A DNA stretch of 64,000 nucleotides from Candidatus Bathyarchaeota archaeon (GCA_963832745.1 CAWHVC010000003.1:608001-672000); one strand, 5' to 3'. Positions 6,961-61,207 are shown, numbered from the stretch's first letter. Numbers and translations: made by a program. Notes: generated from the sequence alone by a model not told the origin.

Positions 6961-7182
6961 ATGACTGAATTAGAAATAGCTGTAGCCCCCATGCATAGAT
7001 TATGCAAGAAAGCAGGAGCAGACCGCGTAAGTGAAGCAGCAGCCAAAGAACTCGCCAAAGCCTTAGAGGAAATCGGCGTAAAAATCGCCAAAGAAGCACT
7101 CGATTTTGCAATGCACGCAGGCAGAAAAACCATCAAGTCCGAAGACATAGAAATTGCCGCCAAAAAAGTAATGGGCAAGTAA
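6961..7182 (+). CDS. Archaeal histone (HMfA/B family)
   Basis: [14 protein letters not shown]...[13 protein letters not shown] histone fold. Confidence 0.96.
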
Positions 7183-7205
7183 GGTAACGTTCACTAGTTA
7201 ACCAG

Positions 7206-7234
7206 TTTCCCTTTCTTCTTTCTTTTTGTATTTT
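7206..7234 (+). terminator. Oligo-T/pyrimidine tract after the histone gene
   Basis: TTTCCCTTTCTTCTTTCTTTTTGTATTTT shortly downstream of the stop; typical archaeal terminator. Confidence 0.5.
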
Positions 7235-7250
7235 AACCGCTGAAAGTCTT

Positions 7251-7312
7251 TTTCAACATTTAATGGCTCAAAAAGCGCTTAACTGACCTACCCCCTATAG
7301 GTTTCTGCATAG
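7251..7312 (+). repeat. Dispersed repeat copy A, left part (split by the transposon)
   Basis: TTTCAACATTTAATGG...ACCTACCCCCTATAGGTTTCTGCATAG. Joined to 10386-10428 it matches 59277-59346 at 63/70. Confidence 0.85.
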
Positions 7313-7596
7313 GGTTCTGTTTCCTTGTCGTCTGTTTTGTCTTTCCATTGATTGCCTGTTACCATTCGTCTGCTCAACGGTTCAATAATGGATATAGCTT
7401 TTCTTGGCACAACCTCAAACGTATAAAGCGTACCATCTATGCCTTGTCCATTAACTAATTTTTTATTGCCATACGAACCATCAAAAATTTCAGTTACCTC
7501 AATAATTTTACATTTTTGTATAGGAACATCACAAGTATGAGTAGCGAAATCTCTTTCAGCAAACATTTTCCCACAATGTGAACATTTAACTAACAT
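7288..7596 (-). CDS. Passenger protein with N-terminal zinc-finger-like motif
   Basis: CSHC...HTC motif. Reads through the left TIR and stops in the target repeat. Confidence 0.6.
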   Translation of the reverse strand: MLVKCSHCGKMFAERDFATHTCDVPIQKCKIIEVTEIFDGSYGNKKLVNGQGIDGTLYTFEVVPRKAISIIEPLSRRMVTGNQWKDKTDDKETEPYAETYRG

Positions 7597-8159
7597 TTCG
7601 ATAAATCCCCAATTTCACTATCATTATCACGAATGTATTTGTTTATGATAGCCTTTTTTTTCGCTAATTTATCGTTTAATTTCTGTAATTTTTCATTTCT
7701 TTCCTTTAAAACTAAGTTTTCTTCTTCAAGAGCCTTTAGTTTTTTACCTAATCCAATTTCATCAATTAAGTTGTTAGTATCAGCCCTTTCAATATTGTCA
7801 AAGAGAGCAACGACAACATCATTCCTTCGTTTCTTTAAGGCATTTAATGTATTCATGGCAGTAATGAAGGAACTAGATAAGATGGAATCAGGTTTATTTT
7901 CTTGTTTGGAATAGAATGCAACCGTTTCATCCATAAGACATTGAACTTTAGTGTACTCTGCAATATGTTCTGCAATAATATCAGCCAATGAAAATTCTTT
8001 TTTGATAGAACGCCCAAAAAAATCTGTTCCCATTGTTCTTTCCACTATTAAAGTTCTTGCTTCAGGTTTTAGGATTAAATCTTTTTCATGGAACTTTTTA
8101 ACAAATGCGTCTACTCTTTTATAAATAGGGTCTGTATCTTCTCTTATTTCTTCAGTCAT
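7590..8159 (-). CDS. Passenger hypothetical protein with C-terminal coiled coil
   Basis: 189 aa with heptad-rich C-terminus; tightly coupled to the flanking ORFs. Confidence 0.7.
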   Translation of the reverse strand: MTEEIREDTDPIYKRVDAFVKKFHEKDLILKPEARTLIVERTMGTDFFGRSIKKEFSLADIIAEHIAEYTKVQCLMDETVAFYSKQENKPDSILSSSFITAMNTLNALKKRRNDVVVALFDNIERADTNNLIDEIGLGKKLKALEEENLVLKERNEKLQKLNDKLAKKKAIINKYIRDNDSEIGDLSKC

Positions 8160-8162
8160 TTT

Positions 8163-8339
8163 TTACACATCGGTTAATTTTTTGACTACAGCAACTCTTT
8201 TGCCGTCAATTATTTCCATTTTCCATTCAAGCTTATCATTGTCTGTCAATTCAAGAAAAGCTACTATTCCTTCGGGAACTGTTGCACGTAGAGAACTTGA
8301 GCCAGGTCTTGCTTCTGTCAGTTTGCTTTTTAAACTCAT
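8163..8339 (-). CDS. AbrB/MazE/SpoVT-like small DNA-binding protein
   Basis: 58 aa read by hand (below the ORF-track cutoff): MSLKSKLTEARPGSSSLRATVPEGIVAFLELTDNDKLEWKMEIIDGKRVAVVKKLTDV. S.R.T.P..I...L.L...D.L.W pattern. Confidence 0.8.
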   Translation of the reverse strand: MSLKSKLTEARPGSSSLRATVPEGIVAFLELTDNDKLEWKMEIIDGKRVAVVKKLTDV

Positions 8340-8361
8340 AGTATTGCCTCAACTATCAATA

Positions 8362-8442
8362 TACCTACAGGTTGTATTTATAACTACTGATTAATCAGCC
8401 AACAAGTTTATATACACATACCTGTATAGTAACCTGTAGGTA
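8362..8442. promoter_or_regulatory. Divergent promoter with a 12-bp inverted operator pair
   Basis: TACCTACAGGTT (8362-8373) and AACCTGTAGGTA (8431-8442) flank two TATA-like boxes (8377-8383, 8407-8414). Confidence 0.6.
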
Positions 8443-8449
8443 GAAACGT

Positions 8450-9574
8450 ATGTCAACAAGACCAACAACCACAAGAACAGAACGGGGACAAGCAATAGCA
8501 AACGCTAGCAATCAAGTAACAAGAATAGACGAACTCCTTTACATCGTACAATCACAAAGCGGACACGGCGAATACGCAGTCAACAAAATAAACCATGAAT
8601 GGTACTGCGACTGCCCCGACAACAAACACCGAAAAGTGACATGCAAACACATCTACGCCGTATTATTCTCACAATCCATAAGAGCAGAGGTTAAAGCAAA
8701 AACAACAAGAACAATCGCCCCAATAGGCAACCTATCAACATGCATCTATTGCAGTTCAAGCAACCTAAAGAAAGACGGCATACGCAAAAACAAAACAGGC
8801 GCAATCCAAAAATTCTATTGCCGAGATTGCCATAAATACATGACTTTTAACATAGGCTTTGAACGAATGAAACATAATCCCCAAGCAATCACAACAGCCA
8901 TACAACTATACTTCTCAGGGGAATCGCTAAGAAACACAATGGAATCCTTAGAACTCTTAGGCGTTAAAGTTTCTCATAAGACAATTTTCATGTGGATAAA
9001 AAAATATGTTAAACTGATGAAAGACTACGCTGATAAATTAGTTCCCGATGTCTCAGACGCATGGAGAGCAGACGAAATACGCTTCAAGGTAAGAGGCAAC
9101 ATGAAATATCTTTTTGCCGTGATGGATGATGAAACACGCTTTTGGATTGCTCAAGAAGTAGCAGATACAAAACATAGCCATGACTGTTTTAACCTGTTTA
9201 AGCAAGCTAAAACCGTAATGGGCAAACAACCAAAGAAAATTATTACTGATGGGCTTTACTCGTTTGCGGCTGCTGCCGAGGTAGAACTTGATGATGCAAA
9301 ACACATACGCCACATTCGCTTAAGAGGAGATGTACACAACAATAAGATGGAACGCCTCAACGGTGAAATCCGTGATAGAGAAAAGACCATGCGAGGACTC
9401 AAAACAGTAAAAACCGACATATTCAACGGAATGCAAATCTATCATAACTTTATCCGACCACATGAAGCCTTAGAAGGCAAAACACCCGCCGACGCATGTG
9501 GCATAGAAATTCAGGGCAAAAATAAATGGATAACCCTAATACAGAATGCTACTCATGATAGACAATCGTGTTGA
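8450..9574 (+). CDS. DDE transposase (IS6-like) with N-terminal SWIM zinc finger and Zn ribbon
   Basis: CDCPD...CKH (SWIM), CIYC...CRDC, WRADE / IITDG / NNKMER catalytic motifs, YHNFIRPH..L.GKTPA tail. Confidence 0.9.
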   Translation: MSTRPTTTRTERGQAIANASNQVTRIDELLYIVQSQSGHGEYAVNKINHEWYCDCPDNKHRKVTCKHIYAVLFSQSIRAEVKAKTTRTIAPIGNLSTCIYCSSSNLKKDGIRKNKTGAIQKFYCRDCHKYMTFNIGFERMKHNPQAITTAIQLYFSGESLRNTMESLELLGVKVSHKTIFMWIKKYVKLMKDYADKLVPDVSDAWRADEIRFKVRGNMKYLFAVMDDETRFWIAQEVADTKHSHDCFNLFKQAKTVMGKQPKKIITDGLYSFAAAAEVELDDAKHIRHIRLRGDVHNNKMERLNGEIRDREKTMRGLKTVKTDIFNGMQIYHNFIRPHEALEGKTPADACGIEIQGKNKWITLIQNATHDRQSC

Positions 9575-10250
9575 CAATAGCAGTGTCTAAAGAGGGCACA
9601 CTATTTTCTAATTTTCCAATGCTTATACTTTTTACTCTTAATTCTCCGCAATATTTCATCTTTTTTTCTATGCCTTCAGCTATCAGTCGAATGTATATTT
9701 TTGAAATTAACTGATTAATAGAAATAGTAACAGATTTAGCGTTTTTAGGCATGATTATTATTCTTTCAAATATCTTGTTTTTTATGACGTTTTTCTCAGG
9801 GGCAATTTCATAAACGGAAAATTGTACTGCATGATTTGAGGGTTTACCTTTTGTGATAATGTTTCCAGTTTTTTCTAATTTCGTGACGTCTTCAATGTAA
9901 GTCAGTGATAGGTAGTAGGGAGAAATCCAGCTTGGGTCTTCACCTACGAATAATTTTGTTCTAGCTTTAGGTACTCCGTTTTCTATCCAAGGATAAATAG
10001 CATTATTGAATTTTGCGTATGCCTCGTTTAATTCTTTACCCTGCTCTATAGTGATGCCGAAACCCATTGTTTCTGAGTGTTTGGTTGGCGTATTAGACAA
10101 GATATATGGAGCCACAGAAACATTCATTTTTAGTCTGTTAAAATAAGCGTTCAGTCGTTCACCAACCACGATAACTGCAACTCCCCCAATAAAACCAAAA
10201 AAGCCTGCTATGATTTCGTTTGATGACATGATGCTTAGTTGCTTTCTCAT
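9549..10250 (-). CDS. Passenger membrane-anchored hypothetical protein
   Basis: N-terminal TM (IIAGFFGFIGGVAVIVVG); lies inside the right TIR; convergent overlap with the transposase. Confidence 0.7.
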   Translation of the reverse strand: MRKQLSIMSSNEIIAGFFGFIGGVAVIVVGERLNAYFNRLKMNVSVAPYILSNTPTKHSETMGFGITIEQGKELNEAYAKFNNAIYPWIENGVPKARTKLFVGEDPSWISPYYLSLTYIEDVTKLEKTGNIITKGKPSNHAVQFSVYEIAPEKNVIKNKIFERIIIMPKNAKSVTISINQLISKIYIRLIAEGIEKKMKYCGELRVKSISIGKLENSVPSLDTAIVNTIVYHE

Positions 10251-10377
10251 AATATTTAGATTTTACCAAATTAGTTCTAGCCGTGAATTTTAGGACAGCC
10301 AGCCCAACATACCCCCAAAACCTTTGAGCAGACGAAAAGTAACATGGAGAAGGTACAGACGAAGAGGTAACAGAACA

Positions 10378-10428
10378 CTGCATAGAACCACTATTTGGAT
10401 CCTAATAGGTTGATATGAAAAGTAAAGC
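10378..10428 (+). repeat. Dispersed repeat copy A, right part
   Basis: CTGCATAGAACCACTATTTGGATCCTAATAGGTTGATATGAAAAGTAAAGC. Confidence 0.85.
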
Positions 10429-10536
10429 TGTAGTTGGGCGATTGGGTGTTTTCTGCTTTTTTTGCTTTTCAGTTGGCGAAAGTGGTTTTGGGCGAACTCT
10501 TAAATCTAAACGCTGTCAGTGCTTCTTTGAGACATT

Positions 10537-11769
10537 ATGCGACTCTCAATCGTTGCTGTTGTTATCACTGTTACACTTGTTTTCAGTGTATCCTTTTCAG
10601 GGTTCTTTTTGCATTCAGTTATTGCCTCAACAGTAAAGACAGACGAACAGCCTCTAACAAAACCCATGCTGCTTTGGAATTATACCGTAGGCACCCCCAT
10701 TCTTTCTCCAGTGGTTTCTAACGGTGTAGTTTACGTTTGCTCAAACACCGAAGTTTTTGCTTTCAACACACGTAACGGTTTGCAACTTTGGAAATCGGTT
10801 GTCCCTCAGTCAATAGTGGCGCCGCCTGCTATGTTCAATGATGTTCTGTATGTGGGTGGCTGGAACTATGTTTTAGCCTTAAACGTCAAAACTGGTGAGC
10901 AACTCTGGGTTTTCTCGCATACTAAAGGAGCCATTGATTATACTGCCCCTGTAGTTACAGACAATATTGTATATTTTGGTGCTCAATCAGACGGTTTTAC
11001 AGCCTTAAACGCGAAAAACGGTGCCCGATTGTGGTATTATCTTAAAGATGAGCAAGTTGGCAACTCTTTGCCTGTTTATTCAGCCCCTGACATATACGGC
11101 GGTAAAGTTATTTTTAGCTGCTCTGACGGCAATGTTTACGCATTAAACGCTACTAATGGTGAAAAGCTTTGGAATTATACAGTTGGCAAATTCGCTATAG
11201 CCTCTCCTACCGTAAACGATGAAGTAGTGTACGTTGGCTCAAATGACGGTTTTTATGCTATAACTGCTGTTAACGGTGAGCAATTGTGGAACTTTACTGG
11301 TCAATTGGTTTCATCGAAGCCCAGCATTAAGGACGGCATTGTTTACTTTGATTGCTATGATGGAACTCTCTACGCTTTGAACGCCACAAATGGTCAAGTA
11401 GTCTGGATTTTTAACGTTGCTTCCTATTTGAATTCAGGTTTACTTTTTTCTTCATCTCCAACCATTGACGAAAGCACGCTTTATGTCGGCTCAGGAAATG
11501 GAACCATTTATGCATTGGATGCTAAAAATGGCAGTAAGCTTTGGAACTTTACGGTCAGTGACGCCGCTTTATCGTCGCCTACAAAAGCAAACGGCGTACT
11601 ATGCATAACCTCTCAGGATGGCAATATTTACGCTTTACAAGTTTCATCGGTCCCAGTATCGCCTACGCCATCTCCATTGCATATTTCATTTTCGAACCCA
11701 ACGACAATCATATCTATAGCTGCATTGTTAATTGTCGCAGTAGCTTTGATAATATTTCAAAAAAAATAA
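10537..11769 (+). CDS. PQQ-like (BamB-like) beta-propeller surface protein
   Basis: Signal peptide, repeated SSP.V..G.VY.GS.DG.LYALNA.NG..LW, C-terminal TM. Confidence 0.88.
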   Translation: MRLSIVAVVITVTLVFSVSFSGFFLHSVIASTVKTDEQPLTKPMLLWNYTVGTPILSPVVSNGVVYVCSNTEVFAFNTRNGLQLWKSVVPQSIVAPPAMFNDVLYVGGWNYVLALNVKTGEQLWVFSHTKGAIDYTAPVVTDNIVYFGAQSDGFTALNAKNGARLWYYLKDEQVGNSLPVYSAPDIYGGKVIFSCSDGNVYALNATNGEKLWNYTVGKFAIASPTVNDEVVYVGSNDGFYAITAVNGEQLWNFTGQLVSSKPSIKDGIVYFDCYDGTLYALNATNGQVVWIFNVASYLNSGLLFSSSPTIDESTLYVGSGNGTIYALDAKNGSKLWNFTVSDAALSSPTKANGVLCITSQDGNIYALQVSSVPVSPTPSPLHISFSNPTTIISIAALLIVAVALIIFQKK

Positions 11770-34749: not shown

Positions 34750-34861
34750 CTGACCTATTTGGATCATATTAGAAACTCTATGCAGAAGCCTAGGGGGTCT
34801 AAAATCCCTAAAGGGGGGTAGGTCCGTATTGGCTGAAAACCCGCTCATTAGCATGTTGAAA
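34750..34861 (-). repeat. Dispersed repeat copy E (reverse strand, duplicated left half-site)
   Basis: Reverse complement reads TTTCAACATGCTAATG...ACCTACCCCCCTTTAGG...GACCCCCTAGGCTTCTGCATAGAGTTTCTAATATGATCCAAATAGGTCAG. Confidence 0.78.
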
Positions 34862-39346: not shown

Positions 39347-39457
39347 TTTCAATATACTGATAAGTTGTTAATAATCCTGTGAGCTTGCCCATCTATGAAA
39401 AGGTAGACCCCCTATAGGTTTCAATATAGAACCACTAATAGTAGCCAAATAGACTGA
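39347..39457 (+). repeat. Dispersed repeat copy D
   Basis: TTTCAATATACTGAT...GACCCCCTATAGGTTTCAATATAGAACCACTAATAGTAGCCAAATAGACTGA. Confidence 0.75.
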
Positions 39458-59123: not shown

Positions 59124-59346
59124 TTTCAACATGCTAATGGCGCAAAAAACCGTCAATAGCACCTAACCCCTCTTAGTGATTTGCGATTTTCATAATGCTT
59201 TTTGGGCTGTTTCTGCGGTTTTCCAAAGCGGCATTTTCTGGCTACTTGTTCTGTAGGGTTAGGGTTCATTGTTTTTACCTACCCTCTATAGGTTTTTGCA
59301 TAGAACCTCTATTTGGATCCTAATAGATTGGTTTAAAAAGTAAAGC
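59124..59346 (+). repeat. Dispersed repeat copy B (intact core 59277-59346; extra half-site near 59160)
   Basis: TTTCAACATGCTAATG (16/16 with copy E) then ACCTACCCTCTATAGGTTTTTGCATAGAACCTCTATTTGGATCCTAATAGATTGGTTTAAAAAGTAAAGC. Confidence 0.85.
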
Positions 59347-59622
59347 AACACAAAGCAATGAACAGCACTGAACAGCAAAATGCAAGTCGGCAACTAGCAT
59401 GGCCCATTAAAACTTGATTTTTTCTATGTTTCGCTCCAACAGCCAAACCAGCATCAGAGCGTGTCCTATAAAGAATTTTAGCGTTAAAAAAACAGCAAAA
59501 TATAGACATTAAACAATCAACAAATACTGCTCTGGCTGGTTTGCAACCAATAGTTGTCCTTTTTTTGCTAAAACTTATTAGGTTCTTGGGGCTTTATCCG
59601 CAAAAGAGGGCTGGAATAACAA

Positions 59623-61114: not shown

Positions 61115-61207
61115 TTTTTACTTGCTAATGCCTTTGTTTTTGGTCAATAGCGCCCTACCCTCTAAGGTTTTCTGCATAGATATCCTATTTGGATTTTAAT
61201 AGGTTGA
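61115..61207 (+). repeat. Dispersed repeat copy C
   Basis: TTTTTACTTGCTAATG...CCCTACCCTCTAAGGTTTTCTGCATAGATATCCTATTTGGATTTTAATAGGTTGA (44/55 with the copy A core). Confidence 0.8.

Follow-up and report, generated by a model that had tools for sequence, protein, structure and literature searches.

Landing sites of an archaeal IS6-like cargo transposon family: non-random insertion at repeat centres and beside putative promoters

The transposon family described here chooses its landing sites instead of inserting at random, as comparison with relatives shows: preferred sites are the centres of a dispersed repeat and spots beside putative promoters. The reference element lies in a 64,000-nucleotide stretch of DNA from a Candidatus Bathyarchaeota archaeon (the window); it is intact, is present once in its genome and belongs to a family of archaeal transposons of 2 to 8 kb. 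It has landed in the centre of a repeat copy that already existed, a position hit by two further family members in a sister genome.

The element and the repeat that it interrupts

The IS6-like transposon occupies positions 7313-10377 (3,065 bp), and carries five ORFs including the transposase gene. It is bounded by a 23-bp left terminal inverted repeat (IRL; 7313-7335, plus strand; GGTTCTGTTTCCTTGTCGTCTGT, starting GGTTCTG) and a 23-bp right one (IRR; 10355-10377, minus strand; reverse complement TGTTCTGTTACCTCTTCGTCTGT), which begins TG; IRL and the reverse complement of IRR match at 19 of 23 positions. Sequence inspection identified the two copies of the target-site duplication, CTGCATAG, at 7305-7312 and 10378-10385. 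Perfect 8-bp duplications surround this element and 64 other delimited family members. The left-end consensus of the family is GGTTCTGTTAAGTCTTCGTCTGTTT, with G1, T6 and T13 invariant (65/65) and G2 and G7 each conserved in 64/65. Family elements range from 2,125 to 8,093 bp (median 3,442), none being smaller than 1.6 kb; one 84-bp element made only of tips was observed at locus L128. A nucleotide search of the element's own genome returned one full match and two short, weak ones, and the four tblastn matches comprised, besides the element, one paralogue with 34% identity and two fragments.

In the intact, 374-aa transposase (8450-9574, plus strand), a SWIM zinc finger and a zinc ribbon with four cysteines are joined to a DDE domain of the IS6/IS240 type, with Pfam matches to DDE_Tnp_IS240 (PF13610; 3.5e-14, 53.6 bits against a cut-off of 27) and SWIM (5e-6). 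Its best-scoring NCBIfam model was transpos_IS6 (NF033587), matched over profile positions 1-201 of 202 with 117.1 bits, under the cut-off of 125. Invariant in 55/55 full-length relatives are C53, C55, C65, H67, C98, C101, C124 and C127 as well as the catalytic D208, D267 and E301 and the basic R308. A search of 61 genomes detected transposases of the family in 21.

IS6 relatives include IS26, IS257 and IS240, archaeal 'IS6-like' elements are present in ISfinder, and IS6-family insertion is generally said to be nearly random. Transposition in the IS6 family is replicative and passes through cointegrates that host recombination resolves. The label IS6-like, which an earlier note on this DNA had applied, is apt as regards the catalytic domain, the tip of the TIR and the duplication of 8 bp, but not as regards size or gene content. 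The likeness consists of an IS240-type DDE domain with the D, D, E triad and a basic residue seven positions after the E, the 8-bp duplication, and a TIR that begins GG and has G at position 7, as given in portions of PMC6807381 and PMC7986276. In contrast to classical members of about 0.8 kb (0.7-0.9 kb) with one ORF, the window element has 3,065 bp and five ORFs, and its transposase scores under the IS6 cut-off. The zinc-finger extensions covered in the available part of the review PMC7986276 are clostridial, whereas here an archaeal protein carries a SWIM finger and a four-cysteine ribbon; ISDsp3 is the single IS6 member with a passenger gene named in that part. The discussion in PMC6807381, in the excerpt available, reports no experiment on archaeal IS6-like elements.

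Between the TIRs and inside the duplication, four ORFs accompany the transposase gene as passenger genes in the sense of a tIS. The leftmost (102 aa; 7288-7596, minus strand) starts with a CxxC pair and extends outwards across the left inverted repeat, with its final 25 nt and the stop codon in the flank; it yielded only weak, sub-threshold zinc-finger matches and has homologues in 5/65 elements by tblastn and in 6/17 by all-against-all comparison. The adjacent 189-aa ORF (7590-8159, minus strand), with a C-terminus that looks coiled-coil by eye, matched no family in Pfam, NCBIfam, PADLOC, PHROGs or Atlas and has homologues in 2/65 (tblastn) and 5/17 (all-against-all) elements. Judged by its homologues, a 58-aa ORF divergent from the transposase gene (8163-8339, minus strand) encodes an AbrB/MazE-type small DNA-binding protein. 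This is the family's commonest accessory gene, with homologues in 28/65 elements, and of the 18 members aligned, 16 match Pfam PF04014 (best E 1.6e-8); when scanned alone, the copy in the window element gave no Pfam match. The divergent control region (8340-8449) contains a 12-bp inverted repeat around TATA-like boxes, with arms TACCTACAGGTT at 8362-8373 and AACCTGTAGGTA at 8431-8442. The fourth, a 233-aa cargo ORF with a hydrophobic N-terminus by eye (9549-10250, minus strand), occurs in the window element only (1/65) and matched no family in Pfam, NCBIfam and further family databases.

The element splits one copy of a dispersed, AT-rich repeat of about 55-70 bp, and its 8-bp duplication lies exactly at the repeat centre. 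The left part of the interrupted copy (7285-7304, plus strand; profile positions 1-20; GACCTACCCCCTATAGGTTT) and the right part (10386-10412, plus strand; AACCACTATTTGGATCCTAATAGGTTG) were located with nhmmer, the matches of which extend over the duplication on either side (7285-7312, profile positions 1-28, E 7.4e-7; 10378-10412, profile positions 21-55, E 7.2e-8). Once the element and one duplication copy are removed, the rejoined sequence aligns gaplessly with the intact copy at 59277-59346 (plus strand; profile positions 2-55, E 9.5e-17) and agrees with it at 63 of 70 positions, as the earlier note had described; we reproduced this reconstruction and its coordinates. The profile search placed further copies at 34753-34798 (minus strand) and, intact, at 39406-39456 and 61153-61206 (both plus strand). 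The 3.02-Mb genome holds about 110-120 copies: the 55-bp core profile gave 120 matches (E of 1e-3 or lower) in both orientations, 110 of them near full length and 106 of these 110 intergenic by crude ORF calls. Within the window, core matches total 268 bp, or 0.42% rather than the roughly 1% that the note had given; across the genome, they cover 0.20%. The repeat's dyad, GGTTTCT-GCAT-AGAACC, forms a weak hairpin as single-stranded DNA (-2.3 kcal/mol, z -1.4), and the duplicated 8-mer takes in its loop and the inner part of its stem. On both sides of the joint, the repeat contains CTATAG/CTATTAG boxes and TAGGT/ACCT boxes. The repeat pattern is present in 27 of 120 genus genomes and abundant in about 10.

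The repeat centre as a recurrent hot spot

The repeat centre is a recurrent hot spot that has received three independent insertions. In the sister genome G080, two other family members occupy the equivalent position, to within 1 bp, of two other repeat copies. The L064 element (3,068 bp) has the opposite orientation, different TIRs and a transposase 63% identical to that of the window; the L064/L130 flanks correspond to repeat profile positions 21-55 and 1-28, which overlap by the same 8 bp as do the flanks of the window element, and the duplication GTATGCAG is the reverse complement of CTGCATAC. The L133 element is a relic with a junction, offset by 1 bp, at which ACAGAACC is followed by TGCATAGAACC. 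Together with the window element, these insertions come from two genomes and represent both orientations.

Each of the three occupied repeat copies (3/3) is intact and empty in the other genome (G000 versus G080), which argues against descent of the three from one ancestral insertion. At the window locus, the left neighbour of the repeat is an archaeal histone gene (73 aa; 6961-7182, plus strand; Pfam CBFD_NFYB_HMF, 1.4e-12), a flank orthologous in 117 of 120 genus genomes, and on the right follows a 410-aa gene (10537-11769, plus strand) whose repeated motifs, judged by eye, resemble those of PQQ/beta-propeller proteins. In G080, the spacer between the histone and PQQ genes contains an intact, unoccupied repeat, the left flank being 90% identical, and an intact repeat is likewise found downstream of the histone gene in G075 and G064. 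Conversely, G000 holds intact empty copies at both loci occupied in G080. The window element was thus inserted into an already existing repeat. The TATA-like box of the 410-aa gene (CTCTTAAATCTAAA, about 26 nt before the ATG) was left untouched by the insertion; in G080, where the site is empty, both the box and the spacer are conserved.

Among the scorable element ends in repeat-bearing genomes, 3 of 11-13 are at a repeat centre, compared with an expected share (within 1 bp) of 0.00077 when weighted by position matrix and 0.00065 for uniform intergenic insertion; the probability of at least 3 of 11-13 is about 1e-7 under either the uniform-intergenic or the TATA-weighted null. This figure builds on three events only, one of them a relic, and on relic ends chosen by eye from a loose pattern listing. 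Outside the repeat lie the elements L043 (G005) and L039 (G030) in repeat-bearing genomes and eight or nine relic ends in G000, G030, G064 and G083. A junction-pattern scan of all 120 genus genomes found G000 and G080 plus one false match in G072, and the same junction was found in no further case in the metagenome contigs scanned. In a related variant repeat (10 copies in G145), one position was hit by two different elements. With this variant counted, 5/65 family insertions are in repeats; the 60/65 delimited insertions elsewhere have unrelated flanks and unrelated 8-bp duplications.

Target sites across the family

Sixty-five distinct family insertions, each with a perfect 8-bp duplication, were delimited, and their surroundings associate the family with several preferred targets, of which the repeat is only one. 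An A/T-only run was found 4-6 nt from the duplication at 32/65 sites, compared with 6.8% of controls (P 2e-20), the controls being 3,720 non-ORF positions within the same loci; within 0-7 nt, the numbers were 51/65 and 23.9%. The position matrix of the insertion sites reads TWTATAWA at -13 to -6. An ORF of at least 80 aa that faces away from the insertion and starts 15-60 nt beyond the box was detected in 24 of 49 cases versus 16% for other A/T runs (P 1e-7), and only 6/49 had such an ORF facing through the insertion site. This association suggests that the TATA-like run near the duplication is usually the promoter of a gene facing away from the insertion, a putative identity derived from ORF geometry, with crude ORF calls as gene calls. 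The promoter side would be left unchanged, because the 8 bp is duplicated. All sites are surviving insertions in metagenome-assembled genomes and are not fully independent, since some loci may be orthologous. Selection against gene disruption adds to the intergenic location, yet it cannot set the 4-6-bp spacing. Among all positions of the genome, the TATA-based matrix ranks the repeat centres no higher than about the 98.8th percentile, and therefore the general TATA rule fails to predict the hot spot. In contrast to this strongly non-random target choice, such targeting is absent from the IS6 accounts in the available portions of PMC7986276 and PMC6807381.

A second feature of the family is the re-use of targets. 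Thirteen of the 65 sites adjoin the tip of another element, and at 11 loci the array junctions carry identical 8 bp while the members differ. Different members are thus stacked end to end at these loci through re-use of the same 8 bp, and repeated hits by other members are associated with head-to-tail arrays that have the identical 8 bp at every junction. The arrays consist of different elements within long contigs, which argues against an assembly artefact. The targeted route of IS26 differs in that a copy is placed beside another IS26 without a new duplication, whereas the arrays here have 8-bp spacers. A likeness in layout is offered by Thaumarchaeota, in which casposons and proviruses are integrated in tandem at one attachment site (PMC6563490, in the part available): several different elements are stacked at one site, with the target regenerated each time. 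The elements described there use Cas1 or tyrosine recombinases and tRNA or protein-coding genes, whereas here DDE transposons re-use an 8-bp duplication beside a TATA-like box.

Explanations and known systems

The observations are probably best explained jointly by a cargo transposon with a repeat-centre hot spot among several targets, proximity to TATA-like boxes, and re-use of the same 8 bp. As in IS6, insertion would proceed by strand transfer of the DDE type with a stagger of 8 bp. Target capture may be steered from a fixed distance on one side of the joint, for instance by a protein bound to the DNA or by the shape that the DNA adopts at TA-rich boxes. The presence of boxes on both sides of the joint in the repeat would explain the symmetric use of both orientations.

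One candidate for such steering is a protein that binds the TACCTA/TAGGTA boxes of the control region and the TIRs and also the ACCTA/TAGGT boxes of the repeat, and that would in this way guide the transposition machinery to the middle of the repeat. This role might fall to the accessory protein of AbrB/MazE type or to the zinc fingers at the N-terminus of the transposase. In most of the 27 family spacers inspected by eye, inverted repeats of the TACCTA/TAGGTA type surround the TATA box, as do the arms in the window; the left half of the repeat, ACCTAC-CCCCTAT-AGGTT, equals a control-region arm with 7 nt inserted, [TA]ACCT occurs at position 9 in 8/65 left TIRs, and an AbrB-like gene is present in the window element, L064 and L055. 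However, this likeness of 5- to 6-nt words was seen post hoc, L039 carries an AbrB-like gene in a repeat-rich genome and yet lies outside the repeat, and L058 hit the variant repeat without an AbrB-like gene. We consider tethering of this kind rather unlikely.

The earlier note had proposed that the transposase recognises the repeat as a dedicated safe harbour, with most transposition directed there, comparable to IS1397 and IS621 at REP sequences. Three hits on one position of the repeat, with both orientations represented and a chance probability of about 1e-7, bear out targeting beyond chance, which the single insertion then visible had left open. The resemblance between the dyad and the element ends also has some substance, as GGTT/AACC tips flank the joint, and AACCT, a motif chosen post hoc, immediately adjoins the duplication in 8 of 520 positions, where about 0.6 would be expected. 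Dedication to the repeat did not hold: unrelated flanks and duplications, named in the note as the contrary outcome, were found at 60/65 sites, even though the repeat centre is still enriched; elements of G005 and G030 lie outside it; the repeat is absent from most family-carrying genomes; and in genome searches no family transposase was found in the repeat-rich G008, G075, G093 and G101. Across the family, the prevailing rule is instead that insertions lie close to TATA-like boxes and re-use the same 8 bp. Dedicated repeat targeting is accordingly improbable, and as an exclusive mode it is largely refuted.

Repeat-targeting elements are nevertheless among the nearest precedents. IS1397 and ISKpn1 (IS3), IS621, ISPpu9 and ISPa11 (IS110) and ISRm22 (IS4) target REP sequences (Tobes and Pareja 2006, PMC1525189), and they resemble the present family in that a palindromic repeat, dispersed and intergenic, is entered repeatedly and independently at one fixed position. 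The association there amounts to 5/5 to 10/10 in one genome, compared with 3 of 11-13 ends here, and the available portion of that paper lists five families (IS3, IS110, IS4, IS256 and IS5), neither IS6 nor archaea being among them. REP hairpins are GC-rich, whereas the archaeal repeat is AT-rich and folds weakly. Target-selective insertion sequences are already known, and the SWIM-DDE family can be classed as a variant of them.

Near-random insertion followed by survival of harmless intergenic copies, one of which happened to be in a repeat, is very improbable. The repeats are indeed intergenic (106/110), and some TATA proximity is expected, since the intergenic DNA of compact genomes is largely promoters (compare the 23.9% of controls at 0-7 nt). 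However, one repeat position was hit three times, the spacing of 4-6 nt is sharp, and random insertion cannot produce identical 8-bp junctions between different elements at 11 loci. Scarcely credible is a repeat that is itself a miniature derivative or footprint of the element, associated with it by common descent: its centre does resemble two inward-facing element tips (GGTTTCT ... AGAACC) and a tips-only element of 84 bp exists, but the repeat is intact at orthologous empty sites, hosts elements with different TIRs in opposite orientations, is lacking from the flanks of 60/65 elements and abounds in transposase-free genomes.

Beyond the joint explanation preferred above, it is a tentative possibility that the SWIM-DDE family reads archaeal promoter architecture and that promoters and promoter-like repeats serve as reusable safe harbours. 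The complex would dock on the bent BRE-TATA region bound by TBP/TFB or, alternatively, on a protein that occupies the TATA-like boxes in the repeat, and the element ends would then be joined one fixed step upstream. A possible adaptor would be either the N-terminal SWIM/zinc-ribbon part of the transposase or the accessory protein of AbrB type. In eukaryotes, Ty3 and Ty1 integrate at Pol III genes and Tf1 at Pol II promoters, and their integrases are guided by known host factors (TFIIIB, Sap1). The SWIM-DDE insertions resemble these in their short, fixed distance from a putative core promoter, the intact gene, the repeated use of sites and the independence of orientation; they differ in that the transposase is a prokaryotic DDE enzyme and the putative promoter is assigned from ORF geometry only. 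If promoter reading holds true, the family would represent a prokaryotic counterpart of promoter targeting of the Ty3/Tf1 type.

Anatomy of the element and its transposase

The transposon (7313-10377) is 3,065 bp long and lies between two copies of the 8-bp duplication CTGCATAG (7305-7312 and 10378-10385, from a reading of 7101-10600). It starts with GGTTCTGTTTCCTTGTCGTCTGT; read on the complementary strand, its other end is TGTTCTGTTACCTCTTCGTCTGT, and the two agree at 19 of 23 positions. The transposase of 374 aa (8450-9574, plus strand) matches the Pfam families DDE_Tnp_IS240 (3.5e-14) and SWIM (5e-6). In the alignment of 55 full-length relatives, the SWIM ligands C53, C55, C65, and H67, a second four-cysteine set (C98, C101, C124, and C127), and the catalytic residues D208, D267, and E301, together with R308, were invariant. 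Judged by catalytic residues, TIR tip, and duplication, the element probably works like an IS6-type DDE transposon, as the earlier note had assumed, but it departs from this class in size, in possessing more than a single gene, and in the curated NCBIfam threshold: the best model is indeed the IS6 transposase, at 117.1 bits just below the cut-off of 125 bits.

Four further ORFs of 102, 189, 58, and 233 aa are located on the strand opposite to the transposase gene. No usable match to the 102-, 189-, and 233-aa products was obtained in Pfam, NCBIfam, PADLOC, PHROGs, or the protein Atlas. The 102-aa ORF (7288-7596, minus strand) exits through the left inverted repeat into the flank, its final codons and stop being supplied by target DNA, an arrangement that recurs in five other elements. 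The window element is single-copy in its host genome, G000 (3.02 Mb, five contigs, 41-42% G+C), in which the window corresponds to C3:608001-672000. This genome also carries a distant IS6-like transposase gene on contig C1 (C1:544200-545030, locus L029), which is about 34% identical, covers residues 96-369 only, and lacks the SWIM part.

Target sites across the transposon family

Relatives with 57-68% identity were found in 21 of 61 related genomes searched. Among species-representative genomes, 295 stretches encoding a relative were recovered and 79 loci were kept; the hosts comprise Bathyarchaeia, Nitrososphaerales, Methanoperedens, and Asgard-related genomes, and the records are mostly Candidatus Bathyarchaeia/Bathyarchaeota MAGs. 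Delimitation by TIRs and a perfect 8-bp duplication yielded 65 distinct insertions after removal of six sites fetched twice. Elements without a perfect duplication or too close to a contig end were left out of this count, and all sites represent insertions that survived in assembled genomes.

When the 65 empty sites were aligned on their duplications, TA-rich sequence peaked at positions -11 to -7. After orientation of the sites by the nearest A/T run (A/T only, at least 6 nt, containing TA), the resulting matrix showed TWTATAWA at -13..-6, followed by TT(G) at -3..-1. An A/T run ended 4-6 nt from the duplication at 32 of 65 sites versus 6.8% of 3,720 non-ORF control positions taken from these loci (P 2e-20), and within 0-7 nt at 51 of 65 sites versus 23.9% of controls. 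By a count from the site listing, the box adjoined the left end of the element in 30 cases and the right end in 23, so that element orientation is free. With gene positions taken from crude ORF calls, an ORF of at least 80 codons facing away and starting 15-60 nt past the box was present at 24 of 49 sites compared to 16% of other A/T runs (P 1e-7), and an ORF of this length pointed through the insertion site in only 6 of 49. In the host genome of the window, A/T runs peak about 20-40 nt upstream of crude gene starts. We infer that the boxes are promoters of genes facing away and that insertion takes place immediately upstream of these promoters; since 8 bp are duplicated upon insertion, the sequence beside the TATA box is left unaltered.

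A further hot spot is situated 24-25 nt past the motif TATTTAAGAGTAGCTACCC. Among the 9 occurrences of this motif in the fetched loci, 8 have an element tip at that distance; the eight include one site that was fetched twice (L031:3832, L057:11041(-), L062:4941, L068:3963(-), L069:4460, L072:4095, and L080:5586), and an empty counterpart exists in the window's genome at C5:326719(-). The motif is conserved and promoter-like, and some copies hold a 12-bp palindrome, GAGTAGCTACTC.

Thirteen of the 65 sites adjoin the tip of another element. At 11 loci (L117, L120, L057, L128, L033, L100, L078, L076, L107, L089, and L114), two to four different members stand end to end with identical 8 bp at every junction. 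In L117, for example, the shared sequence is TGATAAAG; L128 and L057 contain CTTGCGGT and TTGAATAT, respectively, four times each, and L100 contains TGTTTTCC three times. The TIRs of these neighbors differ, and their transposases are 38-67% identical to that of the window. It is possible that such arrays arise by attraction of incoming elements to the ends of resident ones. However, the outermost array flanks bear the same 8 bp and, in most arrays, a TATA-like box at the distance typical of the family, which favors the simplest reading that a single 8-bp hot spot is used serially and regenerated by each insertion; this would explain how unrelated elements came to share one site. Locus L128 also contains an 84-bp, MITE-like family member (9278-9361), which consists of two inverted tips only and is flanked by the 8 bp of the array.

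As far as can be judged from sequence comparisons, fixed spacing from TATA-like boxes and re-use of the same 8 bp thus appear to be the main target rule of this family. It takes the place of the dedicated safe harbor suggested in the earlier note.

Insertions at the center of the dispersed repeat

With the intact repeat copy as a single-sequence nhmmer query, 93 matches were found in the window's genome at E<=1e-2; a profile of the 55-bp core, GACCTA-CCCCCTATAGGTTTCTGCATAGAACTTCTATTAGG-ATCCTAATAGGTTG, gave 120 matches at E<=1e-3, 110 of them near full length. According to crude ORF calls, 106 of these 110 copies are intergenic, and their orientation relative to neighboring genes is unbiased (34/27/25/20). 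Core matches make up 0.42% of the window (0.20% of the whole genome), so that the share of about 1% of the window estimated earlier was too high. Of the 120 genomes in the genus, 27 contain the repeat pattern, about ten of them in abundance, with reversed-pattern controls essentially zero. An Rfam scan of the whole window returned no family at gathering score.

Some copies are followed downstream by a second module, ...AGCAATGAACAGCACTGAACAGCAAAATGCA.GTCGGCA.CTAGCATGGCCCAT..., which is conserved between genomes (window 59340-59410; host genome C5:~508780-508860 and C3:~581330-581394; L132:4990-5060) and could represent a small RNA gene or belong to a longer composite repeat. Upstream of the core there is often a variable hairpin (TAATGGCT - T-rich loop - AGCCATTA), for instance at C4:231963 and C3:226783 of the host genome, so that the full repeat unit may measure about 100 nt. 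In one copy (C5:508857-508898), CCCCTTAG and TAGGTT are separated by an insertion of 32 bp, at a breakpoint different from the transposon hot spot. Another (C5:85398-85432; L157:2999-3033) is truncated, starting 2 nt before the hot spot, and has no adjoining element.

Excision of the window element with one 8-mer restored a sequence that aligned without gaps to the intact copy at 59277-59346, with 63 of 70 positions identical, confirming that the element sits in the repeat center. A second such insertion was found in the related genome G080. There, a 3,068-bp element (L064) has repeat profile positions 21-55 on one side and 1-28 on the other, the same split as in the window, in the opposite orientation; its TIRs begin with GGTTCTGGTGCATCT, and its duplication GTATGCAG is the reverse complement of CTGCATAC. 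The transposase of this element contains two in-frame stops and shares 63% identity with that of the window. The third case is a relic end in G080 (L133), ...TTAACAGAACC|TGCATAGAACCTCTATTTGG, at the same repeat position to within one base. The two sides of this relic map to different contigs of the window's genome (C5:619676-620850 and C2:368424-369617), and a 47-nt transposase remnant (C2:368189-368235) lies beside the C2 counterpart, which points to an old rearrangement at this element.

Intact, empty orthologues were detected for all three occupied copies. In G080, the intergenic region that separates the histone gene from the PQQ-repeat gene holds the repeat intact and empty, with a left flank 90% identical, and G075 and G064 likewise have an intact repeat after the histone gene. 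Opposite the two G080 insertions, the window's genome carries intact repeats at C3:533853-533904 and C5:620854-620907. A junction-pattern scan of the 120 genomes of the genus gave matches in the window's genome and G080 and one in G072 only; the latter, with three mismatches, lies in a partial repeat with no transposase within 6 kb and was not counted. The sole match to a repeat-half/TIR junction in a metagenome scan was an unrelated tandem repeat without transposase.

In most of the 65 family insertions, flanks and duplications were unlike the repeat, which on its face is the outcome that the earlier note had named as speaking against repeat targeting. Most family-bearing genomes lack the repeat, however, so that the informative cases are the repeat-bearing genomes, and as the window element is single-copy, chance had to be evaluated with relatives. 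Outside the repeat, these genomes hold elements in G005 (L043) and G030 (L039) and relic ends in G000 (C5), G030, G064, and G083. Altogether, about 3 of 11-13 scorable ends, relic ends being judged by eye, sit in the repeat. The share expected within 1 bp of repeat centers is 0.00065 under a uniform intergenic model and 0.00077 with the family's TATA-weighted matrix, corresponding to a probability of about 1e-7 for at least three hits. Discounting the window hit that prompted the analysis leaves two among about 11 ends (P ~3e-5 by arithmetic from the same shares). These three events argue that the repeat center is a genuine hot spot, and in substance the targeting proposed in the earlier note is borne out; the repeat is, however, one of several preferred sites rather than a dedicated target. 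A related repeat, CCCCTTATATATAGAAWCTGCATRG, with 10 copies in G145 and none for the reversed control, was struck at one position by different elements in two genomes (L055 and L058).

The general TATA matrix places repeat centers at only about the 98.8th percentile of genome positions and thus cannot account for the three hits. A cruciform or hairpin as the target is not favored, because the repeat folds only weakly as a single strand (z -0.6 to -1.8). On either side of the joint there is a symmetrically placed box, CTATAG at a distance of 4 nt and CTATTAG at 5 nt, and the joint itself lies within GGTTT|CTGCATAG|AACC, the arms of which are similar to the element tips. AACCT, a motif chosen post hoc, directly follows the duplication (offset 0-3) at 8 of 520 positions compared with a background of 0.0011 per position, a tally that includes the window and L064.

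The 58-aa accessory protein has family members in 28 of 65 elements. Of 18 that were aligned, 16 gave a match to the Pfam family MazE_antitoxin, which has an AbrB-type fold (best E 1.6e-8), and a PDB profile search with this family reached at best only E 0.55. The gene is divergent from the transposase gene, and the spacer carries TACCTA/TAGGTA-type inverted repeats flanking a TATA box (arms at 8362-8373 and 8431-8442 in the window element). ACCTA/TAGGT boxes also make up the dispersed repeat, which suggests that one protein may bind both. The flanking boxes, the tip-like arms, AACCT, and the AbrB-like protein with the boxes beside its gene may all contribute at the repeat center. A link between left-arm accessory genes and repeat targeting was dropped, since no correlation was seen and L064 carries the AbrB-like gene only.

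Relation to known elements and implications

Promoter-proximal integration is known from Ty3, Ty1, and Tf1, and IS6-type elements are usually regarded as low-specificity inserters. A literature search by title and abstract retrieved no report on a SWIM-DDE IS6-like archaeal family or on TATA-box target choice in archaea, and target choice of archaeal transposons is hardly treated in the literature found. IS6 elements are described as about 0.8 kb long with one ORF and 8-bp repeats, with ISDsp3 as the one member named with a passenger gene, zinc-finger extensions in clostridial clades, and a targeted route of IS26 beside another IS26 (PMC7986276). In the account of Harmer and Hall, archaeal "IS6" elements are distant relatives at best, without experimental data (PMC6807381). 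REP-targeting insertion sequences of bacteria, with association ratios of 5/5 to 10/10, belong to the IS3, IS110, IS4, IS256, and IS5 families; the families named in that source include neither IS6 nor archaeal ones (PMC1525189). According to a survey of Thaumarchaeota, composite transposons with passenger genes were undetected in archaea (PMC6563490).

The family combines a spacing from TATA-like boxes that is precise to the base pair, repeated use of one and the same 8-bp site, and a hot spot at the center of a dispersed repeat, and it shows that IS6-like transposons with cargo genes are common in archaea. Should the preference reside in the transposase itself, this compact enzyme would insert just upstream of archaeal promoters while leaving them intact. 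It might then be of use in archaeal genetics and for the annotation of promoters and repeats of uncultured lineages, and would provide insights into how transposons limit the harm they do in compact genomes.
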